From positions 66,682 through 130,681 of the IMG/VR virus record IMGVR_UViG_3300044295_000252: a stretch of DNA of 64,000 nucleotides; one strand, 5' to 3'. The notes below the pieces were generated by a model. It was not told the origin of the DNA. It saw only the letters and a program-made list of their open reading frames with translations, and did no database searches. The position numbers and the translations under genes are program-made. Origin of the DNA: a virus (lineage: Duplodnaviria > Heunggongvirae > Uroviricota > Caudoviricetes). The number at the start of each line of letters is the position of its first letter. The first letter of the stretch is position 1. Positions 24,225-64,000 of the stretch are shown here, one piece after another.

Positions 24225-24253
24225 ATTATACGTTGGTTTGGACTCAAAGTCAA
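24225..24253 (-). promoter_or_regulatory. sigma70-type promoter (-35 TTGACT 24248-24253, 17-nt spacer, -10 TATAAT 24225-24230) + AGGAGA SD
   Basis: Reverse-complement reads TTGACTttgagtccaaaccaacgTATAATagcg. Member of the conserved promoter/5'UTR cassette family. Confidence 0.7.
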
Positions 24254-24300
24254 TTGAAACGTTGTCTGCAAAATCAAGCAATTATAAGTCATTGATTATT

Positions 24301-24340
24301 ACACAAAAAACACGGGGGAGTTTTTAGGCTCCCCCGCTGA
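24301..24340 (-). terminator. rho-independent terminator after the MoxR gene (GGGGGAG/CTCCCCC stem, then GUGUUUUUUGUGU)
   Basis: - strand transcript: gggggagccuaaaaacucccccguguuuuuugugu. Confidence 0.75.
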
Positions 24341-24367
24341 TAACGGAAAGTTGACTAGGACATCCCG

Positions 24368-25468
24368 TTAAACACTTGCCGCTGCTACGACGTAGCGGCC
24401 AAATCTCTTGTGAAACTCTGCAAAATTGCTCAGCTTGCCCGGAGTAATAGGCAGGTTATAGGTAGTGATTGCAGTGCGAGCACCCAGCACCACCAGCTCA
24501 GTGCTGAAGTTTGCCATCATATACTCAAAGAAATTATCCACCATTTTATGCCAAGCATCAAGCTTGCCATTAGCCTTGTCGTGCACATCTTTGAGCTCGT
24601 AGCACATGCTAATTGTCAGCGAATACATTGCGCTGATTTCTTTGATCTTGAGATCTTTAACCTTACCCTGCAGGATTTCCACCGGGTTAGGCAGTTGGCT
24701 GCTGATCTTGCGATGTGCCATGAACTTGCGAGCAAGACCTTCGCCTACTGCACCAGAGATCAGATTCATCAGCGTATCATTGTCCACGCTTTCGTCTGCA
24801 ACCAATTCGCTAACAAAACTCCAGCTTCGCGGAGTAGCGAATGAACGGCTGGAGCTCTTGGGATCAAAGTCAAACAGGTCCTGTTTAGCAAAGCCCAGGT
24901 AGCCGATAACGTCCTTGTGGATCGTGTTCAGGATTGCCCACTCTTCCCAGCTTTCGTGATCCACGCGCATTTCCAAGTGGACGAAACGGTTAGCCAAGGG
25001 GCTGGGCATGCGATACACCACACCCTTGTCGCTGTCACGATTGCCAGCAGCAACGATCACCACATTGTCAGGCAAAACATACTTGCCAACGCGACGATTA
25101 AGCACCAGCTGATAACCTGCTGCCTGAATCGCAGGCGCAGCGGAATTCATTTCGTCCAGGAACAGAACGATAATGGGATACTGCGACGCAAGTTCAGCGT
25201 CCGGCAGTTCAATGGGCGGAGCCCAGTCCATAACGCCTTTGTCTTTGTTGAAGAAGGGGATACCACGCAAGTCAGTAGGCTCCATAGTAGCCATGCGCAG
25301 GTCAATCATGTGACCGCCCATCTCGCGAGTAATTTCAGCGATCATATCGCTCTTGCCAATTCCGGGCGGACCCCAGAGGAAAACCGGGCGTTTGGATTTG
25401 AAGCAGCGAATCAGTGCCCGCTTGGCAGCGCGGCTGGTAACAGTAAGATTTTGTGAAGCAGTGCTCAT
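24368..25468 (-). CDS. MoxR-family AAA+ ATPase
   Basis: Walker A LWGPPGIGKS and Walker B VLFLDEMN. Typical MoxR length (366 aa). Confidence 0.85.
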   Translation of the reverse strand: MSTASQNLTVTSRAAKRALIRCFKSKRPVFLWGPPGIGKSDMIAEITREMGGHMIDLRMATMEPTDLRGIPFFNKDKGVMDWAPPIELPDAELASQYPIIVLFLDEMNSAAPAIQAAGYQLVLNRRVGKYVLPDNVVIVAAGNRDSDKGVVYRMPSPLANRFVHLEMRVDHESWEEWAILNTIHKDVIGYLGFAKQDLFDFDPKSSSRSFATPRSWSFVSELVADESVDNDTLMNLISGAVGEGLARKFMAHRKISSQLPNPVEILQGKVKDLKIKEISAMYSLTISMCYELKDVHDKANGKLDAWHKMVDNFFEYMMANFSTELVVLGARTAITTYNLPITPGKLSNFAEFHKRFGRYVVAAASV

Positions 25469-25553
25469 TTATTTCTCCTAGTAAGAGTTAGTTAACGTAT
25501 TACAGAAACGATTATATGCTAGTTTGCGCAGAATGTCAACCGCTTTTTTCAAA

Positions 25554-25709
25554 TTATTGAACAGTGGCGGGCATGGCATGCGTTGCGCGACGATCCATGC
25601 TAGTGAAAATTTCCAAATCTTCAGCACTAAGCACAAAAGCTTTGGTGCTTTGATCCATGAGCTCCTGCAGAGCCTCCATGAGTTCTTCCGGGAAAGCATT
25701 AGGATCCAT
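25554..25709 (-). CDS. small acidic protein (51 aa), not in the ORF track
   Basis: MDPNAFPEELMEALQELMDQSTKAFVLSAEDLEIFTSMDRRATHAMPATVQ. ATG lies 1 nt after the TAA of the upstream gene (translational coupling). Competes with overlapping track ORFs 25478..25699(-) and 25524..25733(+). Confidence 0.35.
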   Translation of the reverse strand: MDPNAFPEELMEALQELMDQSTKAFVLSAEDLEIFTSMDRRATHAMPATVQ

Positions 25710-25710
25710 G

Positions 25711-25986
25711 TTATACACGCTCCAGCATGCTAGCAGACACGCGCCAACGCCCAGTGCCCGTGTTCACGATCACGTTCTTGCGACCCACCTTTTCCACACG
25801 ACCCTGGATCACATTACCACTGCGGCTGTTGGTGAACTTAACCTGCGTACCAATTACCATGCTGCCTACGTTACGGCGCGTGATTTGTGCTCGCACGAAT
25901 TGCACGACTTGGCTAATAGTGTTGAGCTCATCGTTAGTAAAGTTACCTGCCAGGATTGCACTGCGAACATCATGAACAGTTTTCAT
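25711..25986 (-). CDS. hypothetical protein (91 aa)
   Basis: Directly downstream of a consensus promoter cassette with a CTCCTT (AAGGAG) SD. Confidence 0.55.
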   Translation of the reverse strand: MKTVHDVRSAILAGNFTNDELNTISQVVQFVRAQITRRNVGSMVIGTQVKFTNSRSGNVIQGRVEKVGRKNVIVNTGTGRWRVSASMLERV

Positions 25987-26016
25987 TTACGGCTCCTTGT
26001 TGTTAACTATACCACT

Positions 26017-26044
26017 ATTATACAGTTATTGATCAAAATGTCAA
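26017..26044 (-). promoter_or_regulatory. sigma70-type promoter cassette (-35 TTGACA 26039-26044, 16-nt spacer, -10 TATAAT 26017-26022)
   Basis: Reverse-complement reads TTGACAttttgatcaataactgTATAATagtggtatagttaacaacaaggagcc ATG. Confidence 0.75.
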
Positions 26045-26064
26045 CCAAAATGAAATCTTAAAAT

Positions 26065-26388
26065 TCAAGCACTTACCGTCACTGCATCCAGTGGCGGCAT
26101 ATAATGCGGTTGCTCTGCAGCCATGAGTTGTTCTAAAGCATTGAAATCACTGTGTTTATCGCGCACCAGGGCCAACACGCTGTCCTGATGCAGAACCGTG
26201 CAGTGCATGCCTAAAAGCGAATCGTGAGCTATTTGGAACGGGCTAGCAGACACCGCAGGATCCCAATCGCTGAATGCAGGGCCGCGAAACTCAACCCAGC
26301 TGCGCTCGCCAGAGTACCAAGCCTGTATCATACCCGCTGCACCGCCACGCGGCATGTAAAGAAGTATGGTGTTGCGATCCAGTTTCAT
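26065..26388 (-). CDS. hypothetical protein (107 aa)
   Basis: Starts exactly 7 nt downstream of a -10 box (leaderless configuration). Confidence 0.5.
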   Translation of the reverse strand: MKLDRNTILLYMPRGGAAGMIQAWYSGERSWVEFRGPAFSDWDPAVSASPFQIAHDSLLGMHCTVLHQDSVLALVRDKHSDFNALEQLMAAEQPHYMPPLDAVTVSA

Positions 26389-26444: not shown

Positions 26445-26675
26445 TCATGACCATTTCAGCACAAACCAATCTCTGTCAGCGGCATCACGGAACCAAAAGT
26501 GGTGATCGTCCCACCACCAACGCATACGTAGTCCCCACCTACCGGGGCCAAATGAATCCTGACACCACTGCACCATTGCGGCTTTGTTTCCCTCACCATA
26601 CGCGAATGGCGTGACGAGGAAATAGGGTATGCCCCAGATTTCGCCAGTGTTGTTTATTAGTTCGGCACGTGGCAT
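26445..26675 (-). CDS. FxL(R/K)W small-protein family, member A1
   Basis: C-terminus ...FRDAADRDWFVLKWS. Start probably at internal Met (track ORF extends to 26810, overlapping A2). Confidence 0.5.
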   Translation of the reverse strand: MPRAELINNTGEIWGIPYFLVTPFAYGEGNKAAMVQWCQDSFGPGRWGLRMRWWWDDHHFWFRDAADRDWFVLKWS

Positions 26676-26731
26676 ATAGGGTGTAAAAATGTATGATTGC
26701 CCTGAGGTAATGGTGCCGCCATATTTTGCCG

Positions 26732-26896
26732 TTAGTTTTGCCAACGCAGCAAGTACCAAGTATAATGTGATTCCTCGCGGAAGTAAAGATGGCCGCGATG
26801 ACGCCACCATGTACCACCTTTAACCGGTAGTCCAAATGCTGTGCGACACCATTGCATCCTAGCCCAGGCCTCGGGCATTTTAGCTTTGTAAACCAT
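26732..26896 (-). CDS. FxL(R/K)W small-protein family, member A2
   Basis: C-terminus ...YFREESHYTWYLLRWQN. The track N-terminus MVCVEVAV is a frame-shadow of the upstream LRW codons; real start is at MVYKAK. Confidence 0.55.
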   Translation of the reverse strand: MVYKAKMPEAWARMQWCRTAFGLPVKGGTWWRHRGHLYFREESHYTWYLLRWQN

Positions 26897-27144
26897 CACC
26901 GCCACCTCAACACAAACCACTCAAGATCTTCTTTGCGACTGAACGCTATTTCACCAAACCGAATATTGTCGGTCCAGCGAGTCTCAGCAGTCCAGGGCCG
27001 CCAACCCGGTGCACCAAATGTATGGTAGCACCATTCACCAATCGCGTCAAGATCGGCATCCTTTAGATCCTTTAGGCCAAAGGCGGCCACATAACTCCTG
27101 GTGCGCCCTGGTATTATGGGTTCGGTATAGGTATGGATAAACAT
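26896..27144 (-). CDS. FxL(R/K)W small-protein family, member A3
   Basis: C-terminus ...FSRKEDLEWFVLRWR. Start at MFIHTY. Confidence 0.55.
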   Translation of the reverse strand: MFIHTYTEPIIPGRTRSYVAAFGLKDLKDADLDAIGEWCYHTFGAPGWRPWTAETRWTDNIRFGEIAFSRKEDLEWFVLRWR

Positions 27145-27359
27145 CACATCCACTTCAGCGCAAACCAACTGGCATCAGCAGCCAGTTCAAAGTACCAGAG
27201 ATTCCCGGCCCCGTCCCAATAAAATCTACCAGGACTCTCCTGCCATTGGCACCAATGTTTGATTTCCGGTGCGCGCCAGCGTTGTCGCGTATGTTTGGGT
27301 AGATCCACCACATGCCATGTGGCCAGGCGAGCTCGTTTGCTTTTGTTCCAGTGTTTCAT
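27144..27359 (-). CDS. FxL(R/K)W small-protein family, member A4
   Basis: C-terminus ...FELAADASWFALKWM. Confidence 0.55.
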   Translation of the reverse strand: MKHWNKSKRARLATWHVVDLPKHTRQRWRAPEIKHWCQWQESPGRFYWDGAGNLWYFELAADASWFALKWM

Positions 27360-27362
27360 GGT

Positions 27363-27575
27363 TCACATCCACCTCAGTGCAAACAGTGTAGCTAATTTTT
27401 CATCAGTAATATCGAACAAATATCCTGCATAGTCGTTGGGGTCTACGTAGTATCGGCAGGCCCAACCCTTCCCGGCCATTCCTATCCGGCTACCGGTATT
27501 ATTTATTGGCCCAACGTATTTTTCAAGCCATTCTACCATGCCTTCAATATCTTCATTTTGCGTATGTATTTTCAC
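27363..27575 (-). CDS. FxL(R/K)W small-protein family, member A5 (paralogue of B6)
   Basis: C-terminus ...DITDEKLATLFALRWM. Probable GTG start in a GTGA overlap with the upstream stop. Shares ..TQNED..GMVEWL..Y.GP.. with 42445..42666. Confidence 0.55.
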   Translation of the reverse strand: MKIHTQNEDIEGMVEWLEKYVGPINNTGSRIGMAGKGWACRYYVDPNDYAGYLFDITDEKLATLFALRWM

Positions 27576-27754
27576 ACCCACCTCAGAACAAACCAATCGT
27601 GATTGGATTTGACTTGGAACACATATCCACCAGACCCCATTTGCAGCATAAAGTATTCGACATCAGTTTGCTTCATCCACTGCTCAACTTCGACAAAATC
27701 TTGGGAGTTTGGACAATGATAGATTCCCGGAAATCGTGTACGTTTAACTTTCAT
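27572..27754 (-). CDS. FxL(R/K)W small-protein family, member A6
   Basis: C-terminus ...KSNHDWFVLRWV. ATGA overlap with the upstream gene. Confidence 0.55.
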   Translation of the reverse strand: MKVKRTRFPGIYHCPNSQDFVEVEQWMKQTDVEYFMLQMGSGGYVFQVKSNHDWFVLRWV

Positions 27755-27951
27755 AGCCATTTCAATATAAACATAGTAGCGTGGGCGCTATCCTTAAAAT
27801 AAAAATCCAGTGTTCCACGACGCTCAACTATGTTCCATTGATTATATAACAAACCTACATTTTCGGTCAACCATCCACGTATTTCATAATACTGCTGGAT
27901 ATCTGGAAAATTGATTCGGTGCGGCCAAATATCTTTTTTCAAACGTCTCAT
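27751..27951 (-). CDS. FxL(R/K)W small-protein family, member A7
   Basis: C-terminus ...FKDSAHATMFILKWL. ATGA overlap. Confidence 0.55.
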   Translation of the reverse strand: MRRLKKDIWPHRINFPDIQQYYEIRGWLTENVGLLYNQWNIVERRGTLDFYFKDSAHATMFILKWL

Positions 27952-28794: not shown

Positions 28795-28799
28795 GCTGT

Positions 28800-29846: not shown

Positions 29847-30300
29847 AATTATCCTTTAGATCGTCCAATTCCAACAGGCCACAGCGAGTGCAGCGTGGAC
29901 CGTATTCTGCGCTGTAGAGCCCGTTGGCGACATCATGGTCTGAGCAGCTGGTTCTGCTGTGCGGCACCAACTCTAACAGTGTGTCACGATGTTTGAGCAC
30001 CAGATCAAGACGCTGTTGCCGTTCTGCCAACCTGGCCTGTCTGGCTTCTTCGGCCCTGCGCTTGAGTTCATCCTGCAATTCTTTGTCGGTTACTTTGGTG
30101 AGATCCATGTTTCTCTCCTTATCACGTTCAAACAATCCAGATTCTGGTGTGGGATATGTATACCAGGGGCCATACATGCGCTGGAACTCCTGGGCCCAAC
30201 GCCATTGTTCACGACGACCAGCTTCGTTGCGCGAAAATTGCAGCATGTGATTCCATTTGGGGAATCCATGATATCGGCCATTAAGCTTTACGTATTTCAT
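29803..30300 (-). CDS. hypothetical protein with C-terminal CxxC..CxxC zinc ribbon-like pairs
   Basis: Start taken as MKYVKLNGRY (ATG 30298-30300), 8 nt downstream of a -10 box (leaderless). The track start at 30342 would lie beyond the promoter. Confidence 0.45.
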   Translation of the reverse strand: MKYVKLNGRYHGFPKWNHMLQFSRNEAGRREQWRWAQEFQRMYGPWYTYPTPESGLFERDKERNMDLTKVTDKELQDELKRRAEEARQARLAERQQRLDLVLKHRDTLLELVPHSRTSCSDHDVANGLYSAEYGPRCTRCGLLELDDLKDNFDVTVEVRITKVEE

Positions 30301-30307
30301 ATGGCAT

Positions 30308-30336
30308 ATTATATGCAAAATACACCAAAATGTCAA
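30308..30336 (-). promoter_or_regulatory. sigma70-type promoter (-35 TTGACA 30331-30336, 17-nt spacer, -10 TATAAT 30308-30313), leaderless
   Basis: Reverse-complement reads TTGACAttttggtgtattttgcaTATAATatgccat ATG. Confidence 0.6.
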
Positions 30337-33826: not shown

Positions 33827-34230
33827 TATCGTGTTTCCTGAGTATGTTTACAAGCGCGCCGGAATGTGAATCCTGGGCAGGTGCAGCGACGTTGACCCTG
33901 TTCTTCAGTGACCGTATAAACCGCGCCCCGGCTGCCCTCTACTTGCCATACGCGCACCTGGGACTCAGTACCCTTACGAGCCGCTGCTGAGCCGTCTGCA
34001 TACTCCAGCGCAATCACACGATTCAACGCAATGACACGGGTGGGCATTTGACGATCCTGGGGCGTGAGCAGCATAAAGCTACCTTCCGGCACTGTGCGGT
34101 CCGTGCGTCCTACAGTGCCTTCATATATGGTGTCGTTCCATTCGTTCTTGGCATAATAGTTATATTCGCGAAAGCGCGTGGTCACGCGAACGGTCTTGCC
34201 CACTGTGGGCGATGTAAATTGCGTAGTCAC
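33826..34230 (-). CDS. hypothetical protein (GTG start)
   Basis: GTG at 34228-34230 preceded by a GGAGCAG SD and a consensus promoter. C-terminal CxC..C..H cluster. Confidence 0.5.
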   Translation of the reverse strand: MTTQFTSPTVGKTVRVTTRFREYNYYAKNEWNDTIYEGTVGRTDRTVPEGSFMLLTPQDRQMPTRVIALNRVIALEYADGSAAARKGTESQVRVWQVEGSRGAVYTVTEEQGQRRCTCPGFTFRRACKHTQETR

Positions 34231-34257
34231 AGTCTGCTCCTTGTTAACTATTAGCTA

Positions 34258-34285
34258 ATTATACATGAACCAGTGAAAAAGTCAA
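34258..34285 (-). promoter_or_regulatory. sigma70-type promoter (-35 TTGACT 34280-34285, 16-nt spacer, -10 TATAAT 34258-34263)
   Basis: Reverse-complement reads TTGACTttttcactggttcatgTATAATtagc. Confidence 0.65.
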
Positions 34286-34293
34286 GTAAACGG

Positions 34294-34904: not shown

Positions 34905-35117
34905 TTAGGCGAAGTCATAGACGTATTCACTCGTTTTACCAATTCTGGTTACCTCAACGTTGCCAAACTGGCGTTTGTGAACCAGTTTATGATAAATGCT
35001 GCGAGCTTGATCTTCGGTGATGCGATCCACAAACAGGGAACCATAGCTGAAGCCTGCAACACCATGACCGTTTAGTGCAGGCTCAATTGTTTCCAACACC
35101 CGAGTTTCAAATCCCAT
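34905..35117 (-). CDS. hypothetical protein (70 aa)
   Basis: Preceded by a promoter cassette with CTCCTT SD. Confidence 0.5.
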   Translation of the reverse strand: MGFETRVLETIEPALNGHGVAGFSYGSLFVDRITEDQARSIYHKLVHKRQFGNVEVTRIGKTSEYVYDFA

Positions 35118-35147
35118 GCTAGCTCTCCTTGTTATTAACTATACCGC

Positions 35148-35175
35148 TATTATACAGGAATCAATCAAAATGTCA
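35148..35175 (-). promoter_or_regulatory. sigma70-type promoter cassette (-35 TTGACA 35170-35175, 16-nt spacer, -10 TATAAT 35148-35153)
   Basis: Reverse-complement reads TTGACAttttgattgattcctgTATAATagcggtatagttaataacaaggagagc ATG. Confidence 0.8.
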
Positions 35176-35208
35176 ACCGAAATCTGCGTCAGCTAAGTTG
35201 TTGATTTA

Positions 35209-35475
35209 TTAGGCGAAATAAGCTACGAGATTGCGCGTCTCGGTCTGCACGTAGACGCAGTTTGCTTCCGCGTCATATTTGTGCAGAGGATTCTTCATGA
35301 TTTTATTGAAGACGATTTTCACGCTGCGATCCGAAATTTCGTCCTCGGCAACCGGATAACCCTGCTCTGCCGCAGCTTTCTCAACGTGGGCAGAGGCCAT
35401 TCGGTATTGGCCATTGCAGCCACACATGCAGCCGGGTTTACCAGTATAAACACGAGTCACGTTTTTGAGTTCCAT
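35209..35475 (-). CDS. hypothetical protein (88 aa; CMCGCNGQY motif)
   Basis: Preceded by a promoter cassette. Confidence 0.5.
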   Translation of the reverse strand: MELKNVTRVYTGKPGCMCGCNGQYRMASAHVEKAAAEQGYPVAEDEISDRSVKIVFNKIMKNPLHKYDAEANCVYVQTETRNLVAYFA

Positions 35476-35506
35476 TTCGCTGCTCCTTGTCGTTAACTAT
35501 ACCGCT

Positions 35507-35534
35507 ATTATACAGGAATCAACCAAAATGTCAA
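35507..35534 (-). promoter_or_regulatory. sigma70-type promoter cassette (-35 TTGACA 35529-35534, 16-nt spacer, -10 TATAAT 35507-35512)
   Basis: Nearly identical over ~75 nt to the cassette at 35120-35200. Confidence 0.8.
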
Positions 35535-35562
35535 CCGAAATCTGCGTCAGCTAAGTGCTTGA

Positions 35563-35796
35563 TTAGGCATATTTTTTCAAAGCGTAAAGCAAGACATCGT
35601 CACGATCCACCTTGCAGATCTCCAGCCCTTTGCGTTTAGATGGACGTGAGCTCTTGCTGGGGCTCAGCAGCTGGACTCGCACCATTTGTTTACTCTCCAC
35701 TTCCAGCACTTCATAGAGCAGGTTGTAGGACACCACATAGTCGCCCACCACAATAGGACGACCGATCATGTCCAGGGCATGTTCGATATGCTGCAT
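35563..35796 (-). CDS. hypothetical protein
   Basis: 77-aa ORF. Confidence 0.45.
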   Translation of the reverse strand: MQHIEHALDMIGRPIVVGDYVVSYNLLYEVLEVESKQMVRVQLLSPSKSSRPSKRKGLEICKVDRDDVLLYALKKYA

Positions 35797-36046: not shown

Positions 36047-36349
36047 TTAATCACCGCTGTCAATATCATATACGTCATCGCAGTGAACACAGGTATATCG
36101 CGTGAGACAGTTTCCTGCCTTTGCACCACGATAATCATGCACACAGGGCTGACCATCTCGATTCAGGGGCACACGACCCTTGGGCGAAGAAAACATATAC
36201 TGAGCACCGCAGTTGGTGCAGTCCACAGTGTCATCTTCTGCACGATAACCGTACCAACCATGCTTGACACCATACTCACGAAGATTGTCCGGGCAGGGCC
36301 GGTGACCAGTTCCTTTACAAACAGGGCAAACACCTTTAACTCGTTCCAT
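36047..36349 (-). CDS. Cys-rich zinc-ribbon protein
   Basis: CPVCKGTGHRPC .. CTNCGAQY .. CVHCDDVYDIDSGD (multiple CxxC pairs). Preceded by a promoter cassette. Confidence 0.5.
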   Translation of the reverse strand: MERVKGVCPVCKGTGHRPCPDNLREYGVKHGWYGYRAEDDTVDCTNCGAQYMFSSPKGRVPLNRDGQPCVHDYRGAKAGNCLTRYTCVHCDDVYDIDSGD

Positions 36350-36378
36350 TTCTAACTCCTAGTATTAACGATGCAGCT

Positions 36379-36406
36379 ATTATACATGAATGGTCCGGAA
36401 TGTCAA
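36379..36406 (-). promoter_or_regulatory. sigma70-type promoter (-35 TTGACA 36401-36406, 16-nt spacer, -10 TATAAT 36379-36384)
   Basis: Reverse-complement reads TTGACAttccggaccattcatgTATAATagctgcatcgttaatactaggagttag ATG. Confidence 0.75.
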
Positions 36407-36407
36407 G

Positions 36408-36450
36408 CCAAAGAAAAAGCCCGCCAGCAGCGAGCTTTTTTCTTTTGATT
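36408..36450 (-). terminator. probable intrinsic terminator for the outer-membrane-protein gene (hairpin flanked by A- and T-runs)
   Basis: - strand transcript: aaaaaagcucgcugcuggcgggcuuuuucuuugg. Imperfect stem. Confidence 0.5.
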
Positions 36451-37574: not shown

Positions 37575-37587
37575 AAAAAATCCCTTT

Positions 37588-37615: not shown

Positions 37616-37699
37616 GTCCAGAACACATTTTACTTCACTTCATACAGCAATAGACTACAGTATATATTTATTTTTAACCAAGGTCAAATTAAAGTCATT

Positions 37700-42441: not shown

Positions 42442-42444
42442 AGT

Positions 42445-44770: not shown

Positions 44771-45644
44771 CAATGATTTTGTGGATCCACAGATCACATT
44801 GTTGTTGACGATACCAAAAGTCATCATCGGCTAAATGATCCACGCAGTCCTTGATCATGTTGCCATACACATAATCAGGGCAAAGTCCAAGATCAAACCG
44901 CGATATGATGCCAGCGGTATAGAAGCTAACTTGCACATTGTCATCATCCAAACTGCGCCAGTCTGCAGTGATATCAATGTTGTAGTCAGGCCGCTCAAAG
45001 GCAACATGAACAAAGTCATCAACATCATACACGCCCTGGGGATTTATAGTGCCATAATCAGTACTGGTCAAATCACTGAGCCGCCAGTTTTGGCTACGCA
45101 TACTGCCGCTGGGCATCAAGGACTCATAGTCAGGTACGACGGCAGCTACAATACTCAGCAGGTGCGGCAATAGGTCACGGCTCACTCCGCCCCACGCATA
45201 TTGCCTCTGAGTAAACCAACTACCGGGACTGGGCACACGATCGTGATTGATCCAGTTCAGACGTATCAGTCGAGTTACCGGCAACATCGCTTGCCACTCA
45301 GCTATCCAGGGTCGCCACTGATTATTTTTGACCATTGTGATACGCTTATAGGGAAACGTATTGATCAAATTACGCCACCGTTGTTCAGTTTGCAGACCGG
45401 GCTTTTCCACGAATACGATGTTGCTGCGCTCAGCTACGCGATATGCAAGCTCTTCGTGAGTAAAATTGGGTGTACAAATATGCGCGACATCATAGTTCTG
45501 TGTCAGCGCAGAGTCAAGGTTGAGATATGTTGCATACTTATTGGTATCTGGATCTACGGTTACAACGTCATAGCCCAGAATCTCTAGCTGTTGTTTATAC
45601 AGTTTACCAATGCCCATACCTACTACCAATGCCTGTCTATTCAT
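44757..45644 (-). CDS. Gfo/Idh/MocA-family NAD(P)-dependent oxidoreductase
   Basis: N-terminal Rossmann fold VVGMGIGKLY. Conserved EKP motif (VFVEKP). 295 aa. Confidence 0.65.
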   Translation of the reverse strand: MNRQALVVGMGIGKLYKQQLEILGYDVVTVDPDTNKYATYLNLDSALTQNYDVAHICTPNFTHEELAYRVAERSNIVFVEKPGLQTEQRWRNLINTFPYKRITMVKNNQWRPWIAEWQAMLPVTRLIRLNWINHDRVPSPGSWFTQRQYAWGGVSRDLLPHLLSIVAAVVPDYESLMPSGSMRSQNWRLSDLTSTDYGTINPQGVYDVDDFVHVAFERPDYNIDITADWRSLDDDNVQVSFYTAGIISRFDLGLCPDYVYGNMIKDCVDHLADDDFWYRQQQCDLWIHKIIDELK

Positions 45645-45661
45645 AATAGTCTCCTGCGGTT

Positions 45662-45690
45662 ATTATAGCAAGTATGCGGTCGAATGTCAA
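45662..45690 (-). promoter_or_regulatory. sigma70-type promoter (-35 TTGACA 45685-45690, 17-nt spacer, -10 TATAAT 45662-45667) + CAGGAG SD
   Basis: Reverse-complement reads TTGACAttcgaccgcatacttgcTATAATaaccgcaggagactatt ATG. Confidence 0.7.
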
Positions 45691-45726: not shown

Positions 45727-45746
45727 TGTTTTACGCTGCGCAGTGA

Positions 45747-46055
45747 TTAGGCAGCTTGAGTGGTTTTGGTCTTAGCTTTAGCTTTGACCTTGACATTGAC
45801 ACCACTGACTTTAACGGTCTTAGCACCGTTATACTTCTCGTTCGCTGCTTCGATAGCTTCGCGAGCTTCGCCAGTGAACTGGGTTTGTTCCATAAGAAAC
45901 TTGACCGCATCGCCCTTGCTCATTGCTTTGGGCAGTTCAATCAAGTTAACGTCGGTCTGTCCGTTTTTGACCATGAGCTTGACGCGCAACATGTCATTAG
46001 CGAAACGAACCTTAGTCTTGCCATTGCTTTTGCTTGTACCAGTTACTTTGAACAT
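45747..46055 (-). CDS. hypothetical protein with Lys-rich C-terminal tail
   Basis: ..VKVSGVNVKVKAKAKTKTTQAA. CTCCTT SD. Preceded by a promoter with a TACAAT -10. Confidence 0.5.
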   Translation of the reverse strand: MFKVTGTSKSNGKTKVRFANDMLRVKLMVKNGQTDVNLIELPKAMSKGDAVKFLMEQTQFTGEAREAIEAANEKYNGAKTVKVSGVNVKVKAKAKTKTTQAA

Positions 46056-46100
46056 CAGTTTCTCCTTAGAGTTGAATTAACAAAAATTACTACTGCACAC

Positions 46101-46129
46101 ATTGTAACAAATCGGTATCCTAGTGTCAA
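46101..46129 (-). promoter_or_regulatory. sigma70-type promoter (-35 TTGACA 46124-46129, 17-nt spacer, -10 TACAAT 46101-46106)
   Basis: Reverse-complement reads TTGACActaggataccgatttgtTACAATgtgtgcag. Confidence 0.55.
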
Positions 46130-46990: not shown

Positions 46991-47326
46991 TTAGACAGTG
47001 TAACGATGACCGGTCAGCACATTGACCATAGTGGTGCCAGCGCCAAACTCTGCCCGGGCCTCGGCGCGTTCTTCGGCACTGGGGCCTTTGTAGTTAGCGC
47101 GGTATTCTGCCAGAAAAGCCGCAGTGTCAGCATCACGCGCCCCAGCACTGTTTTCACGTTCTTGCAGCGTAATCCAGCCCAGGGACTGAAAGCATTCCAG
47201 CATGTCGTCGAAAGGAACACGATCATTGCTGTTCCAACGCACATGCGGGCCAAACTCTGCGCTGGTGAAATCGATGTAGAACGCGTCTTTGTGTTTCTTT
47301 GCGCTAGCCAGTGTCCATGCATCCAT
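46991..47326 (-). CDS. hypothetical protein (111 aa)
   Basis: Start reassigned to MDAWTLAS (47324-47326), 7 nt downstream of a CTCCTT SD and a promoter cassette. The track start (47377) would lie inside the promoter. Confidence 0.55.
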   Translation of the reverse strand: MDAWTLASAKKHKDAFYIDFTSAEFGPHVRWNSNDRVPFDDMLECFQSLGWITLQERENSAGARDADTAAFLAEYRANYKGPSAEERAEARAEFGAGTTMVNVLTGHRYTV

Positions 47327-47356
47327 CGTCTGCTCCTTGTTATTAACTATACCGCT

Positions 47357-47384
47357 ATTATACAGGTTTTGACCCAAATGTCAA
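47357..47384 (-). promoter_or_regulatory. sigma70-type promoter cassette (-35 TTGACA 47379-47384, 16-nt spacer, -10 TATAAT 47357-47362)
   Basis: Reverse-complement reads TTGACAtttgggtcaaaacctgTATAATagcggtatagttaataacaaggagcagacg ATG. Confidence 0.8.
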
Positions 47385-47425
47385 CCGAAATAGTGGCATA
47401 GTTAATTATCAATTGAATCAAGCAG

Positions 47426-50993: not shown

Positions 50994-51527
50994 CTAGTCC
51001 TTGAATAGATTGGGGAATTTTTCACCAACAAAATCATGCACTTGCTCTTGGGTCATGTCGCCGAGATCCTTGCCGCCCTGCACTGTCACGGCCCTTGAGC
51101 AGAGTTTCGCCAGTTTCGCACCCGCTACATCGTCATCACAGACCGCCACAGTGACACGCCCCAGTGACCCCATCCAGGGCCGCAATTGCCGGGGATCGTT
51201 GCCCAGAACCGCCACCGCAGGCAAGCCCAGGTTATGCAGCTTACACGCATCAAACACACCTTGGGTCACGAACAATACATCACTGCGAAAGTGCCAAGTC
51301 TCCAAGCCCCAGACCGCCAGCTTGTTTTTGGCCCAGGTAAAGTAGCGACCTTCTCGCGGATCATTGCGACATGTTTTGGGCGCAAAGGGGCGATACTGCT
51401 GATAGCCAGCCCACTGCCCCGACAGATTCCACAGGGCAAAACAAGCGGTCTCATCGTCCCAGCTCACAGTGTAGAGGCTGGGATCAAGTCCGCGTTCCAG
51501 TAGATGTGTCTTAACGTCCATGGCCAT
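50994..51527 (-). CDS. Toprim-domain protein (DnaG-primase-like Toprim only)
   Basis: VTQGVFDACKLHNLGLPAVAVLGNDP ... VCDDDVAGAKLA matches the Toprim E/DxD layout (Glu replaced by Gln). No primase catalytic core. Confidence 0.4.
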   Translation of the reverse strand: MAMDVKTHLLERGLDPSLYTVSWDDETACFALWNLSGQWAGYQQYRPFAPKTCRNDPREGRYFTWAKNKLAVWGLETWHFRSDVLFVTQGVFDACKLHNLGLPAVAVLGNDPRQLRPWMGSLGRVTVAVCDDDVAGAKLAKLCSRAVTVQGGKDLGDMTQEQVHDFVGEKFPNLFKD

Positions 51528-51528
51528 A

Positions 51529-51556
51529 TACTAGCAAATGGATGGCCAAAAGTCAA
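51529..51556 (-). promoter_or_regulatory. possible promoter (-35 TTGACT 51551-51556, 16-nt spacer, -10 TAGTAT 51529-51534)
   Basis: Weaker -10. Would give a leaderless transcript starting at Met3 of the Toprim ORF. Confidence 0.35.
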
Positions 51557-55643: not shown

Positions 55644-55719
55644 ACTGTAGTTTATAATGTACCACTTGTTAAGTCAAACACATTTATTTAAGTGTTTGTC
55701 TGCTTCTATAAGTAAAAAC

Positions 55720-58234: not shown

Positions 58235-59614
58235 TTAGCCCTGCGCTGCGCGATCGCGGACGGCTTGGAACGTGGTTTGATTCACCAGTTCACCATTGCG
58301 ATAAACCACTTGCAGGAGATCCTTGCTGACTTGGCTGTCGCTGTAACTTACCGTTTGGAAATCACCGCCCGGTTCGCGGATCAGTTGCAGACGACCACGC
58401 TTGCTGCGTTTACCCGAATCCGTAACCGGATCCTTGTAAACATCAACCCAAGCACCGTTGATGTATGCAGACGAACACTTCATAGCAAATTTCAGTGAGT
58501 CGCGATTGATCTGTTGTAGCAAAGCACCACCCTGACCAAAGGCCACGTTGTCTGCACTGTATCCAGCCATTTGCAGGCTCAGCAGGATACCACGGATCGA
58601 AACATCGTCGATGCCATCGCCCTGGATGATACGCACGTTGTTGAGGACGCGATAGCCCTTGCTGTTTACAGTGTGACCAAAATGTTGATCAAGGATACGC
58701 GCACACTTAGTGACCACTTCTGCAGGGTTACCACTGTCAGGACGAATCACGACCATTGCACCACTATCGATCACTTCCTGCTTGAGTTCCGTTCCCCACA
58801 GTTTACAGGCATTGTAAATGTCGTAACTGTCACTGACACAGGCCAGCAATGCACCGGGTTTAGCATACCGGTTCAGCATGTTGCGATATGCATCAACTTC
58901 GTTCTCACGACCCCAGCTGGTAACCGTTGAGTGTTCCATGGCCGGGATACTGAAACCACACACTTCAGCATCGTAGTATTCCATGGCAGCAAGGATACCG
59001 GCCATGGTATCAGTGCCCATGAAGTTCACCAAGTGAGCCGCACCACCCAGGGCCGCGCTTTCCTGGCTGCTGACACCACGCGCACCAAAGTCATGCAGCT
59101 TGAAGTTGATCAGTGCGGGATCACCAGTTTCTTCCAGGCCACGCAGGATGATTTGCCGACTCATGTAGCTGTTGGTGGCCACAGTGGTGGGATACCACAC
59201 TGCGCGAAGCAGGGCAGTTTCCAAGTAGCTGGTGAGCCAGTAACATTTGGGATCGGTGTTGACGATCGTGACCAGCACGTTTTGGGTTTCGATCACGGTA
59301 CCTTCCCGCACTGCGCGGATCTCCACCGGCAGTCGACCGTTGTGTTGTTTGACGATGTATTCCCAGCCCTCGCGATTGAAGGGCTCGCCGTGTGCAGTGA
59401 TAATTTTTTCTGCGATGTCGATGTCCGCCATCGTGACCGGGGTAGTGAGATATTCACGCAGGAAAGCCTGCAGGCCAAAAAACACAGTGCGATCCCAGCG
59501 TCCACCACGCGACTCGATGTAGCTGTAGATGTATTCGGTTCCGGGCGGCATTTGGTTGAATTGCGAACACTTATAGGAATCTGTGTTCAACAGGATATTT
59601 TTTGCTAGTTTCAT
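58235..59614 (-). CDS. nadV: Nicotinamide phosphoribosyltransferase (NAMPT/NadV)
   Basis: N-terminus ..LNTDSYKCSQFNQ.. and overall ~460-aa NAPRTase-family architecture. Paired with the NadM-Nudix gene. Confidence 0.85.
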   Translation of the reverse strand: MKLAKNILLNTDSYKCSQFNQMPPGTEYIYSYIESRGGRWDRTVFFGLQAFLREYLTTPVTMADIDIAEKIITAHGEPFNREGWEYIVKQHNGRLPVEIRAVREGTVIETQNVLVTIVNTDPKCYWLTSYLETALLRAVWYPTTVATNSYMSRQIILRGLEETGDPALINFKLHDFGARGVSSQESAALGGAAHLVNFMGTDTMAGILAAMEYYDAEVCGFSIPAMEHSTVTSWGRENEVDAYRNMLNRYAKPGALLACVSDSYDIYNACKLWGTELKQEVIDSGAMVVIRPDSGNPAEVVTKCARILDQHFGHTVNSKGYRVLNNVRIIQGDGIDDVSIRGILLSLQMAGYSADNVAFGQGGALLQQINRDSLKFAMKCSSAYINGAWVDVYKDPVTDSGKRSKRGRLQLIREPGGDFQTVSYSDSQVSKDLLQVVYRNGELVNQTTFQAVRDRAAQG

Positions 59615-59678
59615 TTTGATAAACTCCTTATCAGTTATGCCCAGCTCTATTGCCAGGACTTTTTGCTACTGTAACAAT

Positions 59679-59707
59679 ATTATAGCACCATTGCCATAAT
59701 ATGTCAA
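59679..59707 (-). promoter_or_regulatory. sigma70-type promoter (-35 TTGACA 59702-59707, 17-nt spacer, -10 TATAAT 59679-59684)
   Basis: Reverse-complement reads TTGACAtattatggcaatggtgcTATAATattgttacag. ~65-nt 5'UTR to nadV. Confidence 0.65.
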
Positions 59708-61004: not shown

Positions 61005-62045
61005 TTATTTCCCCAGGAAGAATTGAATGATATCGTAGTGGTCTTCGAAGATCTCTTCGCTGTTCAGCGCACTGATGGGAATCCACCGAGCACATTCTGC
61101 ATCATCCGAGCCCTTTACTTTAGGCAGGTTCCATTCGCCATCATCCAAGCTAATATGAATCGCATGCGTAATGGTTCTGCCACGTTGGCTGCGTCCCGGC
61201 GCATCAAACACGCGATTGCCCACGATGCTGCCACGCAGGACCTTTTCCGGCACTTTGATGCCAGTTTCCTCACGGAGCTCACGCAGGGCTGCATCTTCCA
61301 TGGTGCGATCCGCCACGGCATCCACAAAGCCGCCAGGCAGGGCCCAGAGTCCATTGCCGGGATCAGCACCACGCCGCACCATGAGCACGTGACCCGCTTG
61401 CATGACTACAGCATCGGCAGTGACAAAGATAATGGGATAGGGATATGCAGCCTGTTGCTTCTTGTATTTTTCCAGAAACTCACGCTCACGCACCACTTGA
61501 TTGTATTCAGGGCTGTCCTTGAACCAACGCAGGTATGCCAGGGTAGTTTCCGGTACCACGCCACGGAACCAATTGAGATTGCACAGTTCGGGTGTGAAGT
61601 AAATTTTGCGGATCTCAGTGGCGTTGAGATTTTCAATCAAGTCCTGTTGCACGAAAGTCCACTGCGGGAACATGTTGAGATAGTAGCTGCTGTCGTCTTT
61701 CTTGTGGCCAAACAGTGCCACACTGTCACCATCCTGTGTGTGTCGAGCCACCAATTCCTGCACACGCACCACCCAGGCCGCATCATTATACATGGTGTCA
61801 ATGTTGTGCTCAATGTGGAACCGGGCACCAGTTGATTGTTCAATCTTAGCCAAAGCTTCGATTAGCATGGCGCTGCGTTCACGGCTGAGCCAGGGATTTT
61901 TAAAGGTGCGCGGACGACAGGCGCTGCCCACGATCACTACCACTGTATCAGCTTGTTCGCCAGCACGTCGCAGCATCTCCACGTGGGCGTTGTGGACAGG
62001 TTGGAAACGTCCCACACACACCGCAACATCATATTTCTTATTCAT
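61005..62045 (-). CDS. Bifunctional NMN adenylyltransferase / Nudix ADP-ribose pyrophosphatase (NadM-Nudix, NatV-like)
   Basis: VCVGRFQPVHNAH (HxGH nucleotidyltransferase motif). Nudix box GGFVDAVADRTMEDAALRELREETGI. 346 aa. Confidence 0.85.
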   Translation of the reverse strand: MNKKYDVAVCVGRFQPVHNAHVEMLRRAGEQADTVVVIVGSACRPRTFKNPWLSRERSAMLIEALAKIEQSTGARFHIEHNIDTMYNDAAWVVRVQELVARHTQDGDSVALFGHKKDDSSYYLNMFPQWTFVQQDLIENLNATEIRKIYFTPELCNLNWFRGVVPETTLAYLRWFKDSPEYNQVVREREFLEKYKKQQAAYPYPIIFVTADAVVMQAGHVLMVRRGADPGNGLWALPGGFVDAVADRTMEDAALRELREETGIKVPEKVLRGSIVGNRVFDAPGRSQRGRTITHAIHISLDDGEWNLPKVKGSDDAECARWIPISALNSEEIFEDHYDIIQFFLGK

Positions 62046-62106
62046 GATAGCATAACTCCTATGCTGTTAATGCGAAGCGGGTCTATCCCACCTGCATGTT
62101 TATTTA

Positions 62107-62134
62107 TGTGCTAATTATACACGCTGACGATTAT
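62107..62134 (-). promoter_or_regulatory. sigma70-type promoter (-35 TTGACA 62129-62134, 16-nt spacer, -10 TATAAT 62107-62112)
   Basis: Reverse-complement reads TTGACAaataatcgtcagcgtgTATAATtagcac. ~60 nt upstream of the NadM-Nudix start. Confidence 0.65.
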
Positions 62135-62400
62135 TTGTCAACTTCTTTTTTCCGTGCGTAGAACACTGGGTCATAGTCACGATCCACAGTCCAGTCGCCC
62201 AGGACCACACCGTTCTCGTCCCAGATCCTTAGGGTCAGTGGCCACTGACTTTCCCATCCGTCGTGATTGCTGTGATAGTCGTTGGCACAATCCTCCACTA
62301 ACCACTCAGAGGATTCAATATCCCACTGTGATTTAAATTCAATCGCATGTTCAAATGCGATGTCAGGACTATATTCAACTGGATAATAACGTACCAACAT
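62131..62400 (-). CDS. hypothetical protein (89 aa), acidic/Trp-rich
   Basis: First gene downstream of the tRNA. Confidence 0.5.
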   Translation of the reverse strand: MLVRYYPVEYSPDIAFEHAIEFKSQWDIESSEWLVEDCANDYHSNHDGWESQWPLTLRIWDENGVVLGDWTVDRDYDPVFYARKKEVDK

Positions 62401-62418
62401 CCTATTACTCCCTGTATT

Positions 62419-62685
62419 TGGTGGGCCCTGTAGGATTCGAACCTACGACCAAGCGATTCTGGTTTGTGTGAGTTTCCTCACTCCCTGGACTTTGCCTTCA
62501 CCATTGCTTGCGCTTTAGGTGGGTGCCGTCAAGTCTCTACACGTTCCTATCTCTAGGCTTCGCTCGGCGTTGCCATATGTTACCACTTAGGTTTCACCGA
62601 ATTTGACACCATTCACTCGGGCAGTTTCCTGATCCGGTGCACGATTCCATGAGTCGCCTGCTCTAACCAACTGAGCTAAGAGCCC
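62419..62685 (-). tRNA. tRNA-Ile2 (anticodon CAU, lysidine-type) gene interrupted by a group I intron. Exon 1 is 62649-62685, exon 2 is 62419-62458, CCA encoded
   Basis: Spliced product GGGCTCTTAGCTCAGTTGGTTAGAGCAGGCGACTCAT|AATCGCTTGGTCGTAGGTTCGAATCCTACAGGGCCCACCA folds as a canonical cloverleaf. Its D- and anticodon-arms match E. coli ileX as recalled. Confidence 0.85.
62459..62648 (-). other. Group I self-splicing intron (subgroup IC3, Azoarcus/cyanobacterial tRNA-intron type), 190 nt, inserted after anticodon position 36
   Basis: The 5' exon ends in U and the intron ends in G (omega-G). Core blocks AUGGUGUCAAAUUCGGUGAAACCUAAG, UAUGGCAACGCCGAGCGAAGC and GUGUAGAGACUUGACGGCACCCACCUAAAGC match the Azoarcus pre-tRNA-Ile ribozyme core. 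Confidence 0.8.
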
Positions 62686-62694
62686 TTAATGTCT

Positions 62695-62723
62695 ATTGTA
62701 TGACTATTAACCGCATTTGTCAA
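62695..62723 (-). promoter_or_regulatory. sigma70-type promoter for the tRNA (-35 TTGACA 62718-62723, 17-nt spacer, -10 TACAAT 62695-62700)
   Basis: Predicted +1 is ~3 nt upstream of tRNA position 1. Divergent from the + strand gene starting at 62741. Confidence 0.6.
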
Positions 62724-62740
62724 TACCCCGCAAGCTAAAT

Positions 62741-63310
62741 ATGTTTATGAGATTACAGGAATTTGAGAAATCATATCACCAAACACTGCGCGAAAACATT
62801 GAACGCGACAATGACACTGAGTTCAATACCTGCGATTTAATGTTGATCATAGAATCACATGCTAACAACCGTTGGTCAGCACCACAGAACTACGAAGGAA
62901 TATTAGCTGAAGCATTTGATAGGCCATCTGTAGCTGTTGACACCAACCAAGTTGTTTTCCGTAGAGCAGATCCACTGTATTTTGAAACTAAGGCAAAACT
63001 TATTGACCGTAACGAATCTTTGAGAAACGGGTTACATAAGTTTATGCATCAAAAACGCTCAAACCCACTGGCACATATCAATCCCAGTGATAGAATGTTT
63101 TCACCGCAGGGGTTCTTTAGTAAATTAGTACCGGGACTTAGACATGTTCACATGCCTGGCGGTGATATAAGTTTAGTCTATAGGGTTGAAGGCAACGTCG
63201 TTTACCTATATGGATTTTTCTCTCACAAAGATTTAGGTACCGCAATGCCAGCCAATATACGTACTCAACAGAATATGGCCATTAGGTTGAAAAACTCAAC
63301 GTTTAAGTAA
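62741..63310 (+). CDS. hypothetical protein (189 aa)
   Basis: Start at MFMRLQEF. Only + strand gene in the right-hand 45 kb apart from radical-SAM paralogue 6 and its neighbour. Confidence 0.45.
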   Translation: MFMRLQEFEKSYHQTLRENIERDNDTEFNTCDLMLIIESHANNRWSAPQNYEGILAEAFDRPSVAVDTNQVVFRRADPLYFETKAKLIDRNESLRNGLHKFMHQKRSNPLAHINPSDRMFSPQGFFSKLVPGLRHVHMPGGDISLVYRVEGNVVYLYGFFSHKDLGTAMPANIRTQQNMAIRLKNSTFK

Positions 63311-63724
63311 TATCAGCTCAACACCGGCTTCTGCAAACATCTTTTCTGTTAATCGAAAACTATCTTGCCAGCGTGGATTGTCATTAAGCAAAGTGACTAC
63401 GGTTTTGATGCCGCTTTGTATCACTATACCAGCGCAGCGGCTACAGGGCATAAAGGGCCACGTGTAAAGAGTGCAGCCCTGCAAGTTTTGATTGGCAAAT
63501 ACAATGGCATTGATTTCACCATGCACTATCATTTCATATTTGATTTCACGCTGCTGAAGACGCAGATCAGAATCCTCAACACCACGTGGAAATCCATTAT
63601 ACCCGGTACTGACGATACGACGCGAATCGTCAACAATTACTGCACCTACTTTAGTGCTGGGATCTTTACTCCAGTTTGCGATATGTTCAGCTAATTTGAG
63701 AAAACGGTCATTCCAGTCAGTCAT
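63296..63724 (-). CDS. dCMP deaminase (cytidine/deoxycytidylate deaminase family)
   Basis: HGEINAI (zinc His/Glu) and PCSRCA (zinc Cys pair). 142 aa. Confidence 0.85.
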   Translation of the reverse strand: MTDWNDRFLKLAEHIANWSKDPSTKVGAVIVDDSRRIVSTGYNGFPRGVEDSDLRLQQREIKYEMIVHGEINAIVFANQNLQGCTLYTWPFMPCSRCAGIVIQSGIKTVVTLLNDNPRWQDSFRLTEKMFAEAGVELILLKR

Positions 63725-63727
63725 AGA

Positions 63728-64000
63728 TTAAATTATAGTTGCTAGGAACAAATAAGTCAACATATGAGCTGCTTGATCTACACCGAACCAACGCCAAAAA
63801 TGTGGGTGCGATTGGTTTTTTGGACCGTATTTGCTCTTAATATAGTCTATATGGTAGTGAGCTATGCCGTCAATTAAAGCCAATTGCAAGCTCAGTGACC
63901 AGCTGCCGGTTACACTTAATGCTACCAGCAATGTACCTATAGTATGATGTAAGCTATGTACTACGCCGCCCCACGCACCATAAATGCCCTTATTTTGAAT
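63728..64000 (-). CDS. membrane protein, partial (5' end beyond window)
   Basis: His-rich motifs HYHIDYIKSKYG..HFWRWF resemble fatty-acid hydroxylase/desaturase-type di-iron membrane enzymes. The ORF probably continues past position 64000. Confidence 0.35.
   Translation of the reverse strand: MQNKGIYGAWGGVVHSLHHTIGTLLVALSVTGSWSLSLQLALIDGIAHYHIDYIKSKYGPKNQSHPHFWRWFGVDQAAHMLTYLFLATII
63732..63760 (-). promoter_or_regulatory. sigma70-type promoter (-35 TTGACT 63755-63760, 17-nt spacer, -10 TATAAT 63732-63737) immediately upstream of dCMP deaminase
   Basis: Reverse-complement reads TTGACTtatttgttcctagcaacTATAATttaatctATG. Lies within the 3' end of the upstream ORF. Confidence 0.55.

Follow-up and report, generated by a model that had tools for sequence, protein, structure and literature searches.

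The 64,000 nucleotides (nt) at positions 66,682 to 130,681 of the IMG/VR virus record IMGVR_UViG_3300044295_000252, hereafter called the window, contain an array of 20 intergenic promoters with sigma-70-type hexamers. All of them lie on the - strand between 21.35 and 63.76 kilobases (kb), before - strand open reading frames (ORFs), a transfer RNA (tRNA) or a transfer-messenger RNA (tmRNA). We consider it quite probable that this is an array for the host sigma-70 polymerase, in which some promoters share a portable leader cassette and four others are leaderless. Judging from the letters of the DNA, sigma-70 recognition would be the simplest reading of the array: the housekeeping sigma-70/RpoD-type holoenzyme of the host would read the 20 promoters, and each of these would open a transcription unit of the - strand block, whose genes are presumably early or middle ones. 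The window itself appears by protein comparison to be a part of an uncultured jumbo phage that belongs to a large environmental clade and is distant kin of the Pseudomonas jumbo phage PA5oct.

Promoter statistics and the shared leader

Exact matches to TTGACA-N15-19-TATAAT occur 12 times in the window, all on the - strand and with spacers of 16 or 17 nt, whereas 100 dinucleotide shuffles gave a mean of 0.09 and a maximum of 1. This bears out an earlier interpretation made from the letters only (the sequence-only reading), which had proposed sigma-70-type promoters co-oriented with the - strand genes. The set of 20 was defined by at most 2-3 mismatches to the consensus and by reading the context of each site. 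It includes all 17 sites which that reading had listed, with only small errors of coordinate (62107 is in fact 62114, 35148 is 35149, and the weak site lies at 51528), and three sites which it had not: 25511 before the ATPase gene, 37659 before the tmRNA, and 21351 before ThyX, the last of them outside the range of the earlier list. The listed sites precede genes as was claimed, except that 62695 would drive a tRNA split by a group I intron and not a protein gene. The strand bias extends to the clade: in a sample of 80 related loci (1.31 megabases, oriented by the ATPase gene), the gene strand carries 341 near-consensus promoters (at most one mismatch) and the opposite one 17. The anatomy of the sites, their statistics and their strand bias are direct observations.

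A repeat search in the window returned an 82-nt repeat in five copies and a 50-nt repeat in seven, and the aligned consensus is ATTTCGG-TTGACA-TTTTGnT...TG-TATAAT-AGCGGTATAGTTAAnAAnAAGGAG-N5-7-ATG. The near-identical leader AGYGGTATAGTTAAYRACAAGGAG is present in only five copies (26017, 35149, 35507, 47357 and 50948). Alignment of the copies gives three diverged versions (34258, 36379 and 24225), and in the remaining promoters the likeness is confined to the hexamers and the bases directly after the -10 box. The 24-nt leader AGCGGTATAGTTAATAACAAGGAG is matched four times in the window at up to three mismatches, against an expectation of 0, the fifth copy at 50948 being more diverged. The sequence-only reading had described one and the same module in at least 17 copies. 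The two sigma-70 hexamers do recur about 20 times, but a leader common to all 17 sites does not exist.

The module is readily divided into its parts. The six bases after the -10 box, AGCGGT, form the discriminator, and the T-A-T that follows is a Y-R-Y triplet, the purine of which stands 7 nt after the -10 box. Such a Y-1 R+1 Y+2 'start' element, centred 7-8 nt after the -10 box, is reported to fix the start site and to raise the strength of a promoter (PMC12641261). The cassette has T-A-T or C-A-T here, as do all four copies proposed to be leaderless, and over the clade the bases of the triplet are T in 48%, A in 63% and T in 57%. If begun at the inferred +1, the transcript would read AUAGUUAAYRACAAGGAG-N5-7-AUG, with 23-25 A/U-rich nucleotides to the start codon and a canonical Shine-Dalgarno (SD) sequence, AAGGAG. 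By folding, the five leader copies are unstructured (z scores from -0.8 to +1.3), and for the short leaders as a whole z lies between -0.8 and +1.4. In the clade, the leaders of 136 SD-leadered promoters are 24 nt long at the median, and AgGAG precedes the ATG by 6-8 nt.

We read the conserved module as a compact strong-expression cassette, since it combines a discriminator, a start element, an unstructured A/U-rich 5' untranslated region (UTR) and an SD. Such a cassette would span about 60-80 base pairs. Its upstream half would consist of ATTTCGG, the -35 box TTGACA, a spacer with TTTTGGT in its 5' part, the -10 box TATAAT, the discriminator AGCGG and the T-A-T start element, and its downstream half of an unstructured A/U-rich 5'UTR of about 24 nt, AAGGAG and a distance of 5-7 nt before the start codon. 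It had been claimed that the leader is conserved beyond what sigma-70 needs. This holds in a subset, where conservation does extend past both hexamers, but the discriminator, the YRY start element, the A/U-rich 5'UTR and AAGGAG account for much of it. The genes driven by the cassette are ORFans, without mutual similarity and without a Pfam family. An origin of the repeat by gene duplication was considered and rejected, since the proteins encoded downstream show no relationship to each other. The subfamily of 5-8 promoters would then be a portable expression cassette that has been fused to unrelated ORFan genes. As a compact and apparently very strong combination of promoter and ribosome-binding site it is a candidate part for synthetic biology.

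The comparison with cultured phages points in the same direction for the core of the array. PA5oct, the nearest cultured relative, is dependent on its host's RNA polymerase (its transcription is rifampicin-sensitive) and has 32 putative TTGAC/TATAATA promoters around its transcription start sites (PMC7318152). This likeness supports the use of the host polymerase in the window, by analogy, and the A after the -10 box is the majority base in the clade of the window too. PA5oct differs in that neither a shared leader nor a leaderless class has been reported for it (PMC7318152). In itself, a sigma-70 promoter array is ordinary and is to be expected where a phage dependent on the host RNA polymerase has its early genes, and PA5oct is reported to have equivalent motifs. 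In T4 and T5 the early promoters are families of very strong promoters for the host polymerase that are also conserved beyond both hexamers, in T4 through upstream A-tracts and extended consensus positions, in T5 through a downstream, initially transcribed block. The promoters of the window resemble them in being conserved past the hexamers, but the extra conserved positions are different sequences, and neither T4 nor T5 is known for a large leaderless gene class.

Several points weigh against an array for the host sigma-70 polymerase. A phage-encoded factor of the sigma-70 family with the same specificity might read the sites, and it is from the sequence that we infer the reading polymerase, the exact start sites, the strength of the promoters and, by analogy, their early timing. 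A scan of the first 50 kb of PA5oct, which has 33% guanine plus cytosine (GC) and a high background, gave no comparably clean promoter or leaderless signal. Additionally, a subset of the clade has kept TTTTGGT in the 5' part of the spacer as well as TTTTGG or ATTTCGG before the -35 box, and these positions lie outside the textbook contacts of sigma-70. Finally, identical leaders behind unrelated spacers and before unrelated genes are only loosely explained by selection for a strong ribosome-binding site and hint at a sequence-specific role.

Probable leaderless copies

In four promoters of the array the -10 box is separated from an ATG by only 6 (26395), 7 (30308), 6 (51528) or 7 nt (63732), and no SD is present. 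The copy at 26395 has TATAATAGCGGTAT in common with the leadered copies, and its ATG follows at the position of their inferred +1 A. In the proposed mechanism the same core would be used with an ATG at the start-site A, so that these mRNAs would begin with AUG and would be translated without an SD. Very probably, copies with the -10 box 6-7 nt from the ATG give leaderless mRNAs. The sequence-only reading had proposed this for 26395, 30308 and 51528, and among its interpretations this one is upheld best and appears well supported by the spacing; the fourth case, 63732, it had not flagged as such.

The evidence from the clade bears directly on this conclusion. In 65 of 304 non-redundant promoters, an ORF of 50 codons or more opens with an ATG at a gap of 5-7 nt from the -10 box. 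These ATGs peak sharply at a gap of 6 nt (47 cases, against 13 at 5 nt and 5 at 7 nt), the neighbouring gaps hold 0-2 each, and there is another, broad mode at 22-36 nt. An in-frame stop is found within 45 nt upstream in 59 of the 65 candidates. The leaderless arrangement is kept in orthologues across many loci, with spacers that have no shared sequence. Furthermore, protein homology places several N-termini at the promoter-adjacent ATG. From this codon, ThyA of the relatives matches its Pfam profile at positions 1-266 of 266 and the domain of the 5'-3' exonuclease of the relatives begins at residue 3, and the dCMP deaminase of the window matches Pfam dCMP_cyt_deam_1 at residues 3-111 and has the same length as PDB 7fh4, 142 amino acids (aa). 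All three proteins are full-length only when started at that ATG. Both these N-termini and the conservation across the clade are observed directly. Among the four leaderless genes of the window the dCMP deaminase alone has a homology-backed N-terminus, and the other three are ORFans; tblastn of the four proteins against the related loci found no orthologues, and the conservation is shown via other gene families.

Differential RNA sequencing of P. aeruginosa PAO1 gave 55 leaderless candidates among 2,187 transcription start sites, and none in the jumbo phage phiKZ (PMC8244752). A -10 box adjacent to the ORF is described as typical of Deinococcus-Thermus (PMC12340547), and leaderless genes of this kind are also common in mycobacteria (PMC4633059). 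The promoters described here resemble those of both groups in that the -10 box ends 5-7 nt before an ORF-opening AUG, without an SD, and that the arrangement is kept in orthologues. Contrastingly, they belong to a clade of lytic-type jumbo phages with a possibly proteobacterial host, and in proteobacteria leaderless genes are usually rare. The classic leaderless case of a phage is lambda cI expressed from PRM; unlike it, the leaderless genes here include core genes of nucleotide metabolism and not a repressor. The conserved leaderless class is the most noteworthy element of the array. About one fifth of the consensus promoters of the clade abut a start codon, those of core genes of nucleotide metabolism among them. 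This suggests that these phages use leaderless translation routinely and have conserved it as an option.

Other accounts of the conserved module

It could be that the promoter-leader units persist mainly as patches of homology, at which recombination inserts, deletes and swaps ORFans in a hyperplastic region while gene conversion keeps the units similar. Units of this kind are known as promoter early stem-loops (PeSLs), which were defined and shown to recombine in T4-type phages; in RB49, phi1, PST and nt-1 they are repeated units of a sigma-70 promoter and a stem-loop among ORFans and mediate modular shuffling (PMC2839356, PMC4122927). We regard such a role as possible but somewhat improbable. 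The likeness is considerable, as the window has a repeated intergenic motif with a sigma-70-consensus promoter among the small ORFans of a variable region, placed before unrelated genes. In the relatives, several gene-level insertions and deletions (indels) end close to promoters. Two adjacent unrelated genes have copies of the 82-nt repeat that are 94% identical, with unrelated ORFans downstream. The NadV and ATPase genes are adjacent in the related locus L002 (3419-6830, about 0.9 kb between them), whereas in the window they stand 33 kb apart (25.5-58.2 kb), and this interval, absent there in L002, holds most of the small ORFans and promoters. In two pairs of close relatives (L034/L039 and L024/L028) several breakpoints of indels or replacements lie about 10-30 nt from a promoter or between duplicated SDs. 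L028 at 9195-9340, compared with L024 at 5390-5400, has a mini-ORF of about 35 codons inserted exactly between two copies of the leader's AAC(A)GGA SD text, directly behind a conserved promoter-leader.

There are also differences from PeSLs. In PeSLs a conserved G/C stem-loop terminator (often polyG...polyC) is joined to the promoter, while in the window a hairpin adjoins only 3 of the 20 promoters (24337-24312, 36440-36414 and about 45700-45732), and none is found at the five best copies or within the 82-nt repeat. Conservation here runs downstream, into the discriminator, start site, 5'UTR and SD, and not upstream as in PeSLs. The insertions examined are not flanked by two promoter copies. 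Breakpoints near promoters are to be expected anyway, because indels of whole genes must end in intergenic DNA, and in this small sample, which has no control set of promoter-free intergenic regions, their pattern is only suggestive of recombination hotspots. Spacers and leaders are only about twice as identical within a locus as between loci, a ratio which is confounded by orthologous promoters and not decisive for concerted evolution. PeSLs are the closest kind described so far, and the cassette subfamily reads as PeSL-like, usually without the stem-loop; such a role is compatible with the host sigma-70 array and its expression cassette and is no alternative to promoter function.

A different explanation would make the leader a sequence-specific site on early mRNAs, recognized by a phage translational repressor or an endoribonuclease (with RegA- or RegB-like logic), or an enhancer that contacts the ribosome beyond the SD. 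The exact 20-mer TATAATAGYGGTATAGTTAA, which comprises the -10 box and the 14 nt that follow it, recurs in other environmental contigs in the same promoter context, with unrelated spacers and with downstream genes that have no similarity to the ORFs of the window, and in four loci (L001, L093, L100 and L103) the identity extends 10 nt further, to the SD. These metagenome matches were selected by the motif itself, so no frequency can be drawn from them; the scan did not return the window's own copies, its source contig evidently being outside that collection. The sample of ATPase neighbourhoods is unbiased in this respect. There the motif is found in only 3-6 of 284 promoters, and leader text is often shared across loci with differing spacers, for instance ACATACATAGACAGCAACAAACAGGAG in L013, L024 and L026, or variants of GTAYAGTnAAYnACAAGGAGC in L025, L054, L083 and L089. 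The bases flanking the -35 box, TTTTGG-TTGAC-TTTTGGT, recur in the same sample. Therefore, either a sequence-specific constraint or a frequent exchange of short units seems likely from these comparisons.

A dedicated regulatory site is nevertheless unlikely in our view. The motif searches that speak for such a site were ascertained on the motif. The leader has no structure, the Rfam scan of the window found no family in the shared leaders, and within the window there is no complementary (antisense) copy of the motif that could act as a small RNA. The leader of the orthologous vWA promoter differs among the window, L012 and L002, which argues against strict leader conservation. A candidate regulator was not identified among the few window proteins scanned. 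One may also imagine, with about as little probability, that one core serves two deliberate classes of translation initiation, namely the SD leader of about 24 nt, possibly an address tag for a phage factor, and leaderless starts reserved for specific conserved genes, among them ThyA, the 5'-3' exonuclease and dCMP deaminase. The arrangement would then be a regulatory programme and not an accident of a compact genome, and if the phage or stress altered SD-dependent initiation, the leaderless messages would be spared or would even profit.

Very improbable, finally, is a pause, in which TATAGT at -1 to +5 would be a second -10-like element that recaptures sigma-70 after escape, as in the promoter-proximal pause of lambda PR', from where the argument on geometry is drawn, and at which a phage factor could load. 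TATAGT does have both critical bases of the hexamer, A2 and T6, and stands 11 nt downstream of the true -10 box. In the leadered promoters of the clade, counted from the -10 box, hexamers within one mismatch of TATAAT are enriched at offsets of 5 nt (24 of 230) and of 7 nt (17 of 230), compared with 0-6 at other offsets. However, TAnnnT at offset 5 was observed 29 times when 23.7 were predicted from single-column frequencies, therefore the T-A-T start element and A/T richness explain most of the enrichment; a Q-like antiterminator was not found, although no search was aimed at one.

Promoter map and gene surroundings

The 20 sites amount to a transcription-unit map of this uncultured jumbo phage and settle several start codons which gene callers would misplace (Table 1).

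Table 1. The 20 intergenic promoters of the window, all on the - strand, from high to low coordinates. Numbers between hexamers are spacer lengths in nt.
Region	-10 low coordinate	Core	Leader and start	Downstream gene and remarks
63724..63760	63732	TTGACT-17-TATAAT (63760-63732)	ATG 63724, 7 nt after -10, no SD; leaderless candidate	dCMP deaminase, 63296-63724
62685..62723	62695	TTGACA-17-TACAAT (62723-62695)	9 nt upstream of the tRNA gene	tRNA (anticodon CAT), ~62419-62685
62045..62141	62114	TTGACA-16-TATAAT (62141-62114)	~62-nt structured leader	NMN adenylyltransferase/Nudix-like, 61005-62045
59614..59707	59679	TTGACA-17-TATAAT (59707-59679)	~58-nt leader	NadV-like, 58235-59614
51519..51556	51528	weaker, TTGACT-17-TAGTAT (51556-51528)	ATG 51521, 6 nt after -10; leaderless candidate	175 aa
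50916..50981	50948	full cassette, ATTTCGG-TTGACA-16-TATAAT	AGCGGTATAGTTAACGAATAGGAG-N5-GTG; start codon 50918	
47324..47390	47357	full cassette	exact leader AGCGGTATAGTTAATAACAAGGAG; ATG 47326	ORF 46991-47326
46053..46129	46101	TTGACA-17-TACAAT (46129-46101)	~39-nt leader from the inferred start (-10 to ATG 45 nt); ATG 46055	
45642..45690	45662	TTGACA-17-TATAAT (45690-45662)	11-nt leader AGGAGACTATT-ATG; ATG 45644	GC stem-loop just upstream, ~45700-45732
37659..37687	37659	TTGACC-17-TATACT		two-piece tmRNA
36347..36440	36379	TTGACA-16-TATAAT (36406-36379)	diverged leader AGCTGCATCGTTAATACTAGGAG; ATG 36349	preceded by terminator-like hairpin 36440-36414
35473..35564	35507	full cassette	ATG 35475	82-nt repeat copy, 94% identical to that of 35115..35206
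35115..35206	35149	full cassette	exact leader; ATG 35117	reference copy of the 82-nt repeat
34228..34291	34258	diverged cassette, TTGACT-16-TATAAT	TAGCTAATAGTTAACAAGGAG-N6-GTG; start codon 34230	
30298..30336	30308	TTGACA-17-TATAAT (30336-30308)	ATG 30300, 7 nt after -10, no SD; leaderless candidate	165 aa
26386..26423	26395	TTGACA-17-TATAAT-AGCGGT-ATG	ATG 26388 at the inferred +1; leaderless candidate	107 aa; discriminator as in the leadered copies
25984..26074	26017	full cassette	leader AGTGGTATAGTTAACAACAAGGAG; ATG 25986	
25466..25539	25511	TTGACA-17-TATAAT (25539-25511)	~36-nt leader from the inferred start (-10 to ATG 42 nt)	AAA ATPase
24196..24337	24225	TTGACT-17-TATAAT (24253-24225)	diverged leader AGCGACATTAACTAGGAG; ATG 24198	vWA/DUF2201; preceded by terminator-like hairpin 24337-24312
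21330..21379	21351	weaker, TTGATC-17-TATAAT	leader AAGGAGACTATT-ATG; ATG 21332	ThyX (Pfam Thy1)

The tRNA(CAT) gene, presumably ileX-like, was missed by ARAGORN; its group I intron (RF00028, 55.9 bits) lies after the anticodon at about 62459-62648. The two leaders of the salvage genes for nicotinamide adenine dinucleotide (NAD), that of the nicotinamide mononucleotide (NMN) adenylyltransferase/Nudix-like gene at 62045-62113 and that of NadV at 59614-59678, are long (58-62 nt) and unlike those of the other genes. The first is clearly structured (minimum free energy -20.1, z -2.7), and in both a small hairpin presents the SD in its loop (AUAGGAGUUAU and AUAAGGAGUUUAU). At neither leader did an Rfam match rise to the gathering score of its family. 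As the phage has both NadV and the NMN adenylyltransferase, NAD-capping was considered as a reason for the conserved +1 region of the cassette, and it was rejected: NAD-capping reportedly prefers a purine at -1, which the T at this position fits poorly. Another translation-initiation text, AGGAGACTATTATGAA, is common to two unrelated genes and stands in identical form before the 295-aa ORF (45644-45661) and before ThyX (21332-21350); the promoter at 24225 has the related AGGAGACTGACACATG.

The tmRNA gene is of the two-piece (permuted) type and spans 37263-37701 on the - strand (Rfam tmRNA_permuted 144.7 bits, beta_tmRNA 117.7 bits), with the tag peptide ANDNVYSEDLRLAA according to ARAGORN. Its type is a hint of a betaproteobacterial host, and together the tmRNA and the tRNA intron point weakly to a proteobacterial one. 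A scan of genome contigs with the tmRNA T-arm pattern gave no further hint of the host: among the matches listed all phyla are present, the pattern being too universal.

Megablast of the window at 34-37 kb against GenBank phages gave no nucleotide match, to PA5oct either, thus relatedness had to be shown by protein comparison. The AAA ATPase (24368-25468, - strand) is 52.6% identical to its homologue in PA5oct and kin. Several metagenome contigs from JGI and Logan, with 99.8-100% identity to the window, encode the identical ATPase protein; an identical contig occurs in JGI 3300048694. IMG/VR holds at least 184 relatives with ATPase identities of 65-79%, on contigs of up to 364 kb.

The window is divided by strand at about 18.4 kb. 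From there to its end almost every gene is on the - strand, and the genes at 1-18.4 kb, which include tail-fibre-like and radical-SAM genes, are on the + strand. The 807-aa ORF at 1350-3773 (+) consists mostly of degenerate repeats (…NAVSVVSAA…ETHVNAVSNAVSV…) and is followed by two ORFs of about 820 aa with a common block; presumably these are tail fibres. A cluster of radical-SAM-like ORFs lies at 11958-17100 (+), two of them with Radical_SAM/SPASM Pfam matches. Other radical-SAM-like genes, along with further enzymes, are found in a low-GC island at 51563-55643 (-) and 55657-57481 (+), with a GC content of 32-37% compared with about 45% elsewhere and no consensus promoter within it. Finally, at least 13 small paralogous ORFs (62-150 aa) that end in WF[VA]L[RK]W-x-stop lie on the - strand at 26445-28842 and 41999-44176. 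Their DNA repeat GGTTTGTGYTGAGGTGG...TGA overlaps the SD and the start of the following gene, and the whole looks like a tandem family with translational coupling.

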